Source: an uncultured Clostridia bacterium
GTDB taxonomy: Bacteria > Bacillota > Clostridia > TANB77 > CAG-508
Direction: 5' to 3'
Length of the DNA: 64,000 bases
Assembly (NCBI GenBank): GCA_904387305.1
Contig: CAJFLB010000011.1
Coordinates: 10,156 to 74,155 of the forward strand
Shown here: positions 27,512 to 31,195 of the stretch, in pieces
Layout: the number at the start of each line of letters is the position of its first letter
How positions within the stretch are numbered: position 1 is the first letter of the stretch
Made by a program: the position numbers and the translations under genes
Notes under the pieces: generated by a model
What the model saw: only the letters and a program-made list of their open reading frames with translations
What the model was told of the DNA's origin: nothing
Databases searched by the model: none

Positions 27512-29839
27512 TTATTTTTTTTCATTTCTTTTGAAATTAATAACGACTGCATCATCATTATCAAATAAATATCTAGAATCTGTAGTATCTGTTTGAACCG
27601 GGTTGATTTCATCTCTTTCGTCTTTAAAATCTAAATTTTTTAAATCAAATTTCTTTTTTGTTGAAGTATCATCTTCTGTAGTAGTAGTAACACCATCAGA
27701 ATATTTACCAAAATCAAAAGTTTTAATTTTTTGTTTTTCTTTATATTTAGATTCCAAATAATTAAATCTACCAGGTCCAACCATTGGTTTCCCATTAAGA
27801 TCTTTTACTTTAAAAGCACATAATTTATTTGTAAGCATTGTCTGCAATTTACCAGCTGTGAAATAATTAACATATGCCCATTTTGCATCACCATATTTAG
27901 AACCATATTGTGTTTTTTCAGTATCGAAATCAACTTTGTAAGTCCATTCTCTGTGTTGGCCAAATTCTGATACCCACCATTCTAACTCATCTATAACAGC
28001 ATTTCCTGTAAATACTTTGTTTGCACAGTTTGATAAAATAGTATTTCTATAATTTTCTCTAGATTTTGGCGTTTCTAATTGTGCTAAGTTTTGAGCAGAG
28101 ATAATAGTTCCAACACGATATTTTCTATACATTGTAAAGATAGCTTCTGTTGCTTTACAAATAAAGTCAGGGAATTCATCAACATATAGAAAATTAGGAA
28201 CTCTTGAATTTTCCCCACCAGGTCTTCTTAAAACAGCATTTTGCATTGATATTAAGAAGAATAATCCAAATGCTTGATGTGTTGATGAACCTAAATCACC
28301 ACGTCTTGTGCATACAAATGTTATTTCTCCATCTGCCAAAGCTTTATCAAAATCAATATTATTAAATCGATTACATAAGATAGATTTAACACCAGGTAAT
28401 CTTAACAGATTATCTAATTGTGTAACCGCAGCATAAATATCTTTTTCAGTTTGCTCTCTAGCAGGTCCATTATTATAGAAACATTTTCTAAAATATGCAA
28501 GTTGTATAGAATATTTTTCTTTTAATTCTTCATCATGTGCTAATATCTCACACATTTTTTCTATTAATTCAAAGTTGGTGAACATTTTTAGCATATCTTC
28601 CATGTTAGGAAGAGCACCTTCATTCATTCTAGGATACATTTCTTTTAGTAAAATAGCTAAATTTTCAATTGCTTGAATAATAAAGTCTTCCCTATATGCA
28701 TCTTCTACTTCTTCATGAGCGCTATTATACATAGCTTTTAAAGCAGAAGAAATAGTAACGGCTATTTTTGAAGGATCATCATAAACAAAAGGATTTAATC
28801 CCATTGAGTTAGAATTTGATGGATCAATCATATTATATTTAAATCCATAATTATCACAAACTTGTGTCATATGGTCTATTAGCTCATAATCTGGAGACAT
28901 GATTTCCAATCCCAAATTTTTATATACATTTTCACCATTTAGTGGTCCTAAAATCATTTTTTTCATATAAGTATTATAAACTGCTTCTTTTCCTTCAGTA
29001 GGAGCAAGCATTTCTAATTTAAAGTTTTGATTTAGGTATTCATTATCATATGGTCGTTTCAAATGAGCAATACCTGTTTTTAAAGCTGTAAATCCCATTT
29101 CCTTAGAAACTTCTCTGAAAAAGAATTTTTTCTCAATATCTCTTGCAATCATTGGTTCAAATACTAAAGATGTTTTTCCTGTACCAGAACCTCCACATAC
29201 AAATAAAGATAAATATCTAGAAGCTTCCGGAATGGTAATAACTGTTCCATAATCATGATCTGTGCATAAGAAAACTTCGCAAGTATATATACCTTTATCC
29301 TTTTTAGGATCAGATAAATCAATACCAGGATAATCCCAAATAGAACGGATTTGATCTAAGTTGTCATTAATACCCAAATATAACCATTTAAATAATGGAA
29401 ATATAGTAACAAGTGGTAAATAAAGCGAAATACTAATAAATGCAGGCTTTACAATATCAGAAAAATCAGTGATTAATTCTACATAATTAGGGACAGATAG
29501 TAATAATAACCAAGCTCCCATATTTAGCCATTGAGTGAACATAGAAACGGCAATGATATATAATCCAATGACATATACATAGAATATGGCAACCTTTTTC
29601 ATGTTAGAAGTAGCAAATTCAGATTTACCTGAAAATAAGAATGCAAAAACTGGACATGCTAAAGCTAGAGTGTATTGTATAGGTCCCCAATAAGAATAGG
29701 ATACACCTGTAAATATCATAAGAAGCATTTCTACTAGTCTATCTACAGCTAAATATACAGTTAACAATGTTAAAATATATGTTGCAAATGTATTTCTATT
29801 GATATTCAATTTCTTTAAAAATTTATCGATTAGCTTCAT
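27512..29839 (-). CDS. membrane-anchored TraD/TraG/VirD4-like (type IV coupling protein-like) P-loop ATPase, orphan
   Basis: About five N-terminal TM helices. Walker A VCGGSGTGKTS, Walker B FLYVDEFPDF, TIISAQNLAQLE (T4CP SxQxxxQL-like), and an acidic/Thr-rich C-terminal tail. Confidence 0.55.
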   Translation of the reverse strand: MKLIDKFLKKLNINRNTFATYILTLLTVYLAVDRLVEMLLMIFTGVSYSYWGPIQYTLALACPVFAFLFSGKSEFATSNMKKVAIFYVYVIGLYIIAVSMFTQWLNMGAWLLLLSVPNYVELITDFSDIVKPAFISISLYLPLVTIFPLFKWLYLGINDNLDQIRSIWDYPGIDLSDPKKDKGIYTCEVFLCTDHDYGTVITIPEASRYLSLFVCGGSGTGKTSLVFEPMIARDIEKKFFFREVSKEMGFTALKTGIAHLKRPYDNEYLNQNFKLEMLAPTEGKEAVYNTYMKKMILGPLNGENVYKNLGLEIMSPDYELIDHMTQVCDNYGFKYNMIDPSNSNSMGLNPFVYDDPSKIAVTISSALKAMYNSAHEEVEDAYREDFIIQAIENLAILLKEMYPRMNEGALPNMEDMLKMFTNFELIEKMCEILAHDEELKEKYSIQLAYFRKCFYNNGPAREQTEKDIYAAVTQLDNLLRLPGVKSILCNRFNNIDFDKALADGEITFVCTRRGDLGSSTHQAFGLFFLISMQNAVLRRPGGENSRVPNFLYVDEFPDFICKATEAIFTMYRKYRVGTIISAQNLAQLETPKSRENYRNTILSNCANKVFTGNAVIDELEWWVSEFGQHREWTYKVDFDTEKTQYGSKYGDAKWAYVNYFTAGKLQTMLTNKLCAFKVKDLNGKPMVGPGRFNYLESKYKEKQKIKTFDFGKYSDGVTTTTEDDTSTKKKFDLKNLDFKDERDEINPVQTDTTDSRYLFDNDDAVVINFKRNEKK

Positions 29840-29959
29840 TTAAAATATCCTTTCAAAATTCATAATCATACATATATATTATCCTACAAAATAGCGAAAA
29901 AAACAAGACTTTTAGCGAAATTTATCTACTTTTTTATAGTGAAAGTCTAATAACTATAA

Positions 29960-30215
29960 AACACGAAACGCGAGGGAGGAAGTTTCTCCTTTGCAAGTTG
30001 GGTGATAAACACCCGACACATGGATAGCTACTATAGAGAACACAATCACTACTATGCGATTGGGAGAAAGCCGGAGAATACCAGGAGAATTCCAAATTGG
30101 AGTTGGAACCAAGCCAGATCGTGAGTATCACGAAACTGGCCAGGCCTTCAGTTTGACTCCAGAAAAACAGAAAACGTCACTATGCGGTGGCGTTTTCTAC
30201 TTTTCTGGGGTTAAA
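29960..30215. ncRNA. candidate structured RNA of unknown class (G+C-rich island), strand unresolved
   Basis: Local hairpins: GUUGGGUG-AUAAA-CACCCGAC (29996-30016), GCCAG-AU-CGUGA-GUA-UCACG-AAA-CUGGC (30112-30139), and ccagaaaaacagaaaacg...cgttttctacttttctgg (30159-30207). Tandem GGAGAAnnCC repeated three times (30061-30091). No credible ORF or RBS. Confidence 0.4.
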
Positions 30216-30224
30216 CATGAACAT

Positions 30225-30250
30225 TAAAAAAGGAACTAAGTTCCCTTTTT
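30225..30250. terminator. bidirectional terminator
   Basis: aaaaaaggaact-aa-gttccctttttc. Confidence 0.7.
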
Positions 30251-30418
30251 CTGTATGTGCTCTAATGTGATTAAAAGTAGAAATAAACATTTACGACATT
30301 TTGCTATTCTTTTTTTTATATTAAAATAGTAATTCAATTATCATAAAATGTGTAAAAGAGAGTATAAAAAAACATATAAGTGTATATATTATTATGAAAA
30401 AGGTGTGGGAGGAAAGCT

Positions 30419-30703
30419 ATGGAAGATGGATATATACAAGAGAACGAATTGGAAAATTTAGACGAAAGAGAAAAAGAAATAGAACTAATCAAAAATATTA
30501 TTCATACAAGGAGAGAGTTAAAAAATGTGGATAAAAATTTTGAATATGCACAAGATGATTTGGTAGATTATTATATTTATGAAATGAAGGCAAATCAAGC
30601 AAAATTAAATTATTTAATCAAAATGGCAAAAATGAAAGGAATCACAGTAGATATGATTAATGATATAAAATATAGACTTTCTAGTGATGAAGAAGTAGGA
30701 TAG
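30419..30703 (+). CDS. yaaL: YaaL-family protein (DUF2508)
   Basis: LIKNIIHTRRELKNVDKNFEYAQDDLVDYYIYEMKANQAKLNYLIKMAKMKG matches the DUF2508 pattern, and the gene precedes bofA as in Bacillus. Confidence 0.7.
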   Translation: MEDGYIQENELENLDEREKEIELIKNIIHTRRELKNVDKNFEYAQDDLVDYYIYEMKANQAKLNYLIKMAKMKGITVDMINDIKYRLSSDEEVG

Positions 30704-30922
30704 GTCTATTTGTCCAATTGATAGCATAATAATGAGTAAGAGGATATATATGTTATCAATTGGAGGAGAAGGTTGAAAAATAATTACAATTTTGGCTGTG
30801 CGCAGTGGCGAATTTCATTTAAAACGAGGTTACATATAAACATATGCTCCCTTGCCTTTTAAATAAAATTTTTCTTGCCAAAATTTAATTCTTTTCCAAC
30901 CAGAATGTGCCTTCCGAAAGGA

Positions 30923-31195
30923 ATGATTGCGGAAATGGATTTAAATATAGTTACATATTTGGCTTGTATTTGTTTTATATTTATCATTGGAAGAATTTTT
31001 ATTGTCCCACTAAAGAAGATATTAAAACTCATTATCAATTCAATATTTGGTGGGCTTATTATATATGTGATTAATTTAATAGGAGCTAATTTTGGGTTTC
31101 ATATAGGATTAAATATTGTGAATAGTATCATCATAGGATTATTGGGATTACCTGGAGCAGTATGTTTAATCGTTGTAAAATTATTAATAGCATAA
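30923..31195 (+). CDS. bofA: pro-sigma-K processing inhibitor BofA
   Basis: Two-TM protein with IFIVPLKKILKLIINSIFGGLIIYVINLIG ... IGLNIVNSIIIGLLGLPGAV. The start is uncertain (ATG 30923 or 30935; the track ORF starts at TTG 30875). Confidence 0.75.
   Translation: MIAEMDLNIVTYLACICFIFIIGRIFIVPLKKILKLIINSIFGGLIIYVINLIGANFGFHIGLNIVNSIIIGLLGLPGAVCLIVVKLLIA

Follow-up and report, generated by a model that had tools for sequence, protein, structure and literature searches.

A single-copy, G+C-rich insertion between a T4CP-like gene and yaaL in one Clostridia species: a candidate orphan small RNA at an intergenic insertion hot spot

The spacer between a T4CP-like gene and yaaL in an uncultured Clostridia bacterium holds a non-coding, structured, G+C-rich island outside known RNA families. 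This island is the core of a lineage-specific, single-copy insertion of ~425 nt, located at ~29935–30362 of the window (i.e., the whole stretch of 64,000 nucleotides that was analysed). The spacer itself is a recurrent intergenic insertion hot spot, at which at least four different inserts are found at one position in related lineages. The insert is tentatively best explained as an orphan plus-strand sRNA candidate of ~240–285 nt, which would have been acquired with foreign DNA.

A preliminary description, made by reading the letters of this DNA, had pointed to a G+C-rich island at 29960–30215, and its composition bears this out: G+C measured per 100 nt is 0.42–0.49 between 29950 and 30199 versus 0.15–0.32 on both flanks, and the compositional island of 42–49% G+C spans 29960–30255 in a genome with a mean of 0.28. 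Only ~70 stretches genome-wide (1.89 Mb) reach 45% G+C over 150 nt, and the G+C content of the island is at the level typical for structural RNAs of the same 28% G+C genome. G+C-rich islands in A+T-rich genomes have reportedly been used to predict structured non-coding RNAs (hyperthermophile work, around 2002). The impression that the island holds no credible ORF or ribosome-binding site also holds up: no ORF in it has a Shine-Dalgarno (SD) site, and four frames match no family in Pfam and have a single chance-level match in PHROGs (E 0.1). One plus-strand frame is open from stop to stop over 54 codons, ending 20–25 nt before a long hairpin; in a phmmer search of 1.84 billion representative proteins, this frame had two matches, both being tandem-repeat translation artefacts. 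A pseudogene or gene fragment was rejected for lack of translated similarity in phmmer, Pfam and PHROGs. As a separate observation on composition, contig C67 of the same genome (G000; ~2.5 kb) has 63–67% G+C versus 28% for the genome, and is probably contamination of the MAG.

The left neighbour of the insertion encodes a TraG/T4CP-like membrane ATPase of 775 aa (27512–29839, minus strand). This gene was found in all 61 genomes compared from the genus and order, and thus provides a stable anchor for comparison of the spacer. The genus and most other families have one copy per genome; family f2 was scored with two adjacent copies, and one genome of f4 with two split pieces. Conjugation genes were not seen around it within the window, and it behaves as a housekeeping gene outside any mobile element. 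In three independent metagenome assemblies of one sister lineage (L082–L084), ORF calling yields two overlapping frames for the gene (589 aa and 198 aa), which points to a frameshift or to splitting of the gene in this lineage.

The spacer between the T4CP-like gene and yaaL was compared in 21 congeneric species, and closer lineages were represented by metagenome contigs fetched via YaaL variants. In the 21 species, the spacer is usually 140–220 nt and the island is found in none. BLAST homology with sister loci (L065, L068, L070, L072, L082 and L085) ends at 29915–29934 and restarts at 30352–30361, which indicates the insertion of ~425 nt. Among the closer lineages, loci with a YaaL identity of 100% and 99% (10 loci from ENA assemblies, L064 and L089) have a spacer of 579 nt with the island and 0–3 SNPs per spacer. 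The contig of L088 (YaaL 98%) begins inside the island at 30052, so that its spacer is incomplete, and is identical to the window over the part covered. The spacer is empty at YaaL identities of 96% (L082–84; 136 nt) and 95% (L065–67; 156 nt), contains a ~280-nt element with terminal inverted repeats of ~60 nt in other lineages at 95% and 94% (L085–87 and L070–71; ~431–435 nt), and contains a ~60-nt hairpin element at 94% and 91% (L068–69 and L072–74; 219 and 210 nt, respectively). In all the lineages at or below 96%, the flanking genes are ~84–92% identical to those of the window and the island is absent.

Two further observations concern this neighbourhood. A second lineage-specific insertion of ~135 nt lies between yaaL and bofA (30797–30932); it is missing in the sister lineages and L088, and makes the apparent ORF of bofA longer at its upstream end (106 aa, starting at TTG, versus 86 aa in relatives). 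The L088 contig (ERZ28615355 scaffold_41985), which lacks this yaaL–bofA insert, is identical to the window over 30052–30371 and diverges sharply from 30522; L088 represents a recombinant strain, or else the metagenome assembly is chimeric.

Thirteen contigs of its own species contain the island in nearly unchanged form; the DNA assemblies in which it occurs include ENA ERZ2915935, ERZ4883044, ERZ24773333 and ERZ28614305. Among the 13 contigs, the island itself has only two SNPs, 30096 A>T and 30185 C>A, and each lies in the apical loop of a hairpin; such a placement has a probability of ~0.013, which with n = 2 is only a hint. As diversity within the species is ~0.2%, the fixation of the island is uninformative on selection. 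Neither terminal inverted repeats nor a target duplication mark the ends of the insertion, where only chance-level short repeats are seen, and its junctions share only a 3-nt microhomology (AGT). Further copies were not found in the same genome by blastn at word size 7 or by nhmmer.

Homologues were sought at several depths. BLAST in 60 related genomes found no homologue of the island, and a covariance model of 29967–30147 gave only chance-level matches (E 0.01–0.3 per genome) in genomes of the same genus (100), order (400) and class (399). Pattern and peptide-pattern scans, which covered 185,579 species with one genome each as well as JGI metagenomes and IMG/VR, yielded one further contig, which is of the same species; such scans reach copies of roughly at least 85–90% identity, and a more distant donor may exist. 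Exact patterns of the individual structural elements (H1, H2, the repeat block, H3 and the long hairpin; see below) had no match in the genome and viral contig collections, nor did blastn match any plasmid or phage record. The search for homologues and covariation proposed with the preliminary description returned nothing beyond the species itself, within which the only two SNPs are in loops. Poor conservation without covarying pairs, named there as counting against the proposal, is what was found insofar as the element is confined to one species. The island was therefore rejected as a conserved structured RNA class, a term that does not apply to an element absent outside one species.

Nor does the island belong to a described RNA family. 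With the covariance models of Rfam 15 at gathering thresholds, including ribozymes as well as raiA and ROOL, to which the preliminary description had pointed, no family was found on the island, and the only matches elsewhere in the window are glmS and one tRNA. When the threshold was relaxed to E ≤ 10 on 29800–30420, the best score was 28.6 bits versus a cutoff of 66 bits, for a plant miRNA hairpin model; models of this type match the long hairpin on both strands and represent hairpin noise. The Rfam results agree with the earlier by-eye mismatch with 6S RNA, tmRNA, RNase P, T-box and riboswitches. SRP RNA, which had also been judged not to fit, was rejected: the real SRP RNA of the genome is on another contig (G000:C19:22126–22267), where its scores of 64 bits (RF01854) and 59.5 bits (RF00169) exceed both cutoffs, and the island has no SRP match even at E ≤ 10. 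The resemblance that had made bacterial SRP RNA (scr) attractive is limited to the neighbouring yaaL–bofA, as in the scr–dnaX–recR–yaaL–bofA order of B. subtilis, and to a size near that of large SRP RNA.

The point of insertion is shared with other inserts. All the differing inserts are located at one point between AAATTTATTTAAyTTTT and (T)AGTATAAAAA, which corresponds to 29927–29940 and 30355–30368 of the window (loci L034, L065–L074 and L082–L087). At this point, sister lineages have an empty site, the ~60-nt hairpin element (CCAATTGGG...), the ~280-nt element or other inserts (G030, G032, G017 and G033). Two of the sister insert families have 27–51 BLAST matches in the genome of the window, and are thus multi-copy and MITE-like. 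The sequence of the island is unlike that of the other inserts at the hot spot.

Conserved blocks lie on both sides of the insertion. On the left, 29866–29908 is near-invariant in the 21 congeneric species, with a consensus of ~43 nt (CATACATATATATTATCCTAyAAAATnGCGAAAAAAACAAG), and the surrounding intergenic DNA varies freely. On the minus strand, this block contains TTGTTT-17-GATAAT (29879–29907), probably serves as promoter for the T4CP-like gene and adjoins its 5′ UTR. On the right, the yaaL-proximal block at 30363–30418 (plus strand) has the conserved arrangement (T)AGTATAAAAA ... TGAATATAmTATTATG ... GGAGG, and reads as the own promoter-proximal region of yaaL, with a putative promoter, and its ribosome-binding site.

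Several discrete hairpins account for the predicted structure of the island. The region 29955–30255 folds with −113.1 kcal/mol (z −9.55) on the plus strand and −98.4 kcal/mol (z −7.89) on the minus strand; with the terminators excluded (29966–30150), the values are −60.6 kcal/mol (z −4.7) and −56.7 kcal/mol (z −3.5), respectively. The middle part (30020–30150, plus strand; −32.9 kcal/mol) is not significant (z −1.7), suggesting that the fold signal comes from the discrete hairpins and that there is no single global fold. About eight G·U pairs of the plus-strand helices, as counted from the sequence, are A·C mismatches on the minus strand, which argues that the structure is specific to the plus strand. 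In these predictions the plus strand is the better-folding one.

From 5′ to 3′ on the plus strand, the first of these elements is H1, an 11-bp hairpin at 29970–29994, which appears in both MFE and centroid structures. H1 has four G·U pairs and is absent from the minus-strand folds, indicating that it would form on the plus strand only; in its arms, an SD-like GGGAGGA pairs with the anti-SD-like UUCUCCUUU. It is followed by H2 (29997–30017), in which the 8-bp helix GUUGGGUG–AUAAA–CACCCGAC is seen both in the sequence and in the folds, and by an A-rich linker of 44 nt (30018–30061), which is mostly unpaired in the folds apart from one weak 5-bp helix (30043–30062). The next element is a purine-rich block at 30062–30104 with four GGAG motifs and a two-copy 11-nt repeat (GGAGAATACCA/GGAGAATTCCA); the small hairpin within it (30088–30104) carries the strain SNP 30096 A>T in its apical loop. 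H3 (30113–30141) is predicted to fold as GCCAG-AU-CGUGA-GUA-UCACG-AAA-CUGGC. Both H2 and H3 had been recognised in the preliminary description, as had the terminal hairpin and the bidirectional terminator behind it, all of which were recovered here.

The 3′ part of the island consists of these latter structures. The long hairpin (30151–30216; 30 bp, 83% paired) was found by repeat search and in the folds, and its inner 13-bp stem (30169–30198), followed by ACUUUUCU, scores as an intrinsic terminator on the plus strand (T1); this stem carries the second strain SNP, 30185 C>A, in its apical loop. A second terminator (T2; 30226–30250), composed of an A-tract, a GGAAC/GUUCC stem and a U-tract, is bidirectional according to scan and folds. 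Terminator-like sites number three versus 0.2 expected from shuffles, two of them on the plus strand (30169–30198 and 30232–30244) at the 3′ end of the island. An intrinsic terminator at this end of the plus strand is a feature looked for in a stand-alone sRNA. Beyond the terminators, the A+T-rich tail of the insertion (30256–30362) has no recognisable feature.

The repeat and the GGA motifs, on which the preliminary description had placed weight, are more modest than proposed. Of a triple tandem GGAGAAnnCC repeat, two clean 11-nt copies stand (Tandem Repeats Finder reports 2.0 copies of GGAGAATACCA at 30073–30094), and the presumed third copy, GGGAGAAAGCC, is degenerate. All eight GGA motifs are present, yet the excess is mild (8 versus 4.1 expected, p ~0.03). 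The excess of GGAG is larger (5 versus 1.0 expected, p ~0.001), partly owing to the single 11-nt tandem duplication. Two GGA motifs are within the H1 stem and the rest are partly unpaired, with most lying outside hairpin loops. The speculation that the island is a sponge for CsrA-type proteins was rejected, as CsrA (PF02599) is missing from the genome, which is 99.6% complete; the positive controls (E. coli, B. subtilis and T. maritima) all match PF02599. Like the CsrB/RsmY-type sponges, the island has repeated purine-rich GGA/GGAG motifs, some of them unpaired; in addition to the lack of CsrA, it differs from them in the mildness of the GGA excess, the position of most motifs outside loops and the lack of an Rfam match.

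These features can be combined into a scheme in which an insertion of ~425 nt entered the ancestor of one species at the hot spot between the putative divergent promoters of the T4CP-like gene and yaaL–bofA. The inserted unit would be read on the plus strand in the order promoter-like site, H1, H2, A-rich linker, GGAG block, H3, T1 and T2. The promoter-like site, TTTATA-16-TATAAA (29933–29960), was recognised by eye, with a predicted start at ~29966–29968, such that H1 would begin 3–4 nt after the start. The consensus promoter scan, which demands T at position 6 of the second hexamer, does not report this site; its matches number 6 versus 4.0 expected, and such matches are common in an A+T-rich genome. 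The site is thus a putative promoter, for which this resemblance is a weak indication. The predicted RNA would be ~240 nt long when ending at T1 or ~285 nt long when ending at T2, with no coding capacity. If functional, this RNA might act in trans, either by base-pairing via the unpaired linker and GGAG block or as a decoy for an SD-binding factor. The analysis shows the insertion, its uniqueness, its predicted structure and strand bias, and the exclusion of known families and of CsrA; we infer transcription, RNA ends and mode of action from these elements. The stand-alone plus-strand sRNA of the preliminary description thus remains the best reading, favoured by the 3′ terminators and the plus-strand fold, with a transcript and ends that are predicted ones.

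The candidate sRNA resembles the species-specific (orphan) trans-acting sRNA genes that Firmicutes have acquired with foreign DNA, which likewise are intergenic, combine a promoter-like site and a stem-loop at the 5′ end with unpaired stretches and a terminator, lack an ORF, have a narrow range and are G+C-rich relative to an A+T-rich genome. It differs from them in its predicted length (240–285 nt) and its two tandem terminators, and in being known here from sequence alone, with no identifiable target or partner protein and no place in a described family.

The main rival, only somewhat less probable, is that the insert is a neutral, non-functional remnant of foreign or mobile DNA, for instance what is left of a lost gene or element at its 3′ untranslated end, including the terminators, possibly without any discrete RNA. 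The hairpins would then be inherited terminators or DNA-level structures, and the RNA fold would not be a selected one. Such a remnant would suit a position that holds four different inserts or none in sister species, where insertion appears to be frequent and tolerated, and would explain why the island is missing in every other genome searched. The 54-codon frame, which stops shortly before the long hairpin in the manner of the 3′ end of a gene, also fits this possibility; however, none of the frames has a protein homologue, and H1 and H2 are strong hairpins within the supposed coding frame. Although the central part of the island is not significantly structured, the G·U bias, the 5′ hairpin after a promoter-like site and the tandem terminators together look like a complete unit, not a fragment. 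The two SNPs give no power to show constraint, but both are in loops.

That the insert is a solitary non-autonomous mobile element (MITE-like or of IS200/IS605 type), targeted to the MITE site and with hairpins acting at the DNA level, is unlikely. The hot spot is indeed used by the multi-copy MITE-like families of the sister lineages, and elements of IS200/IS605 type are without terminal inverted repeats and target duplication, as is the insert. However, the insert remains single copy even in the most permissive searches of its genome, differs from the other inserts at the hot spot, is not found in the other genomes searched and has no match in Rfam, IscB/HEARO RNA included. It was also rejected as a MITE or other non-autonomous transposable element in the strict sense on the grounds of its single copy, its lack of inverted repeats and its junctions with only AGT in common. 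Compared with the MITE-like palindromic elements of the genus, it shares the insertion point, small size, non-coding nature and richness in hairpins, whereas it is unrelated in sequence, G+C-rich and internally asymmetric with oriented terminators.

Still less probable is that the insert acts in cis on yaaL–bofA as a leader, attenuator or insulator, which would be transcribed from a promoter in the upstream conserved block, stopped at T1/T2 and thereby modulate or block read-through. Both T1 and T2 are oriented towards yaaL, and the block at 29866–29908 carries CATACATAT on the plus strand, which we take to resemble the −10 element of a sporulation sigma factor; this is a lead only. Against such a role, the conserved proximal promoter block of yaaL and its ribosome-binding site are downstream of both terminators, the two terminators are unconditional and are followed by 170 nt of A+T-rich spacer before yaaL, sister species manage without the island, and no riboswitch matches it. 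For the same reasons, i.e., the position of the yaaL-proximal block downstream of T1 and T2, the sister species without the element and the lack of an Rfam match, a riboswitch or 5′ leader of yaaL–bofA was rejected. The leader or riboswitch of the minus-strand T4CP-like ATPase that had been offered as the alternative to an sRNA fares no better: the putative promoter at 29879–29907 separates the gene from the island, and sister species have the gene with a spacer that lacks the island. With the putative promoters of both neighbours outside the insert and the island dispensable in sister lineages, the island is probably not a cis-regulatory leader of either the T4CP-like gene or yaaL.

A further reading, in which the GGAG repeats and the SD/anti-SD-mimicking H1 of a recently acquired functional orphan RNA form a decoy for the 16S anti-SD or an SD-binding factor, is a long shot. 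If true, it would represent a new kind of translation-modulating sponge in a Clostridia lineage devoid of CsrA, and its site of capture would be an intergenic 'safe harbour' in which MITE-like elements otherwise accumulate.

Overall, the island is not a widespread new RNA class, is probably not a riboswitch and shows no link to the T4CP-like gene. Among the side results, the most instructive is that at least four different inserts have come to occupy a single nucleotide position. If the candidate sRNA is transcribed, the island would be a clean case in which one species has gained an entire sRNA gene and its sisters keep the empty site, and would thus be a usable case for how bacteria acquire regulatory RNAs and where insertions are tolerated.
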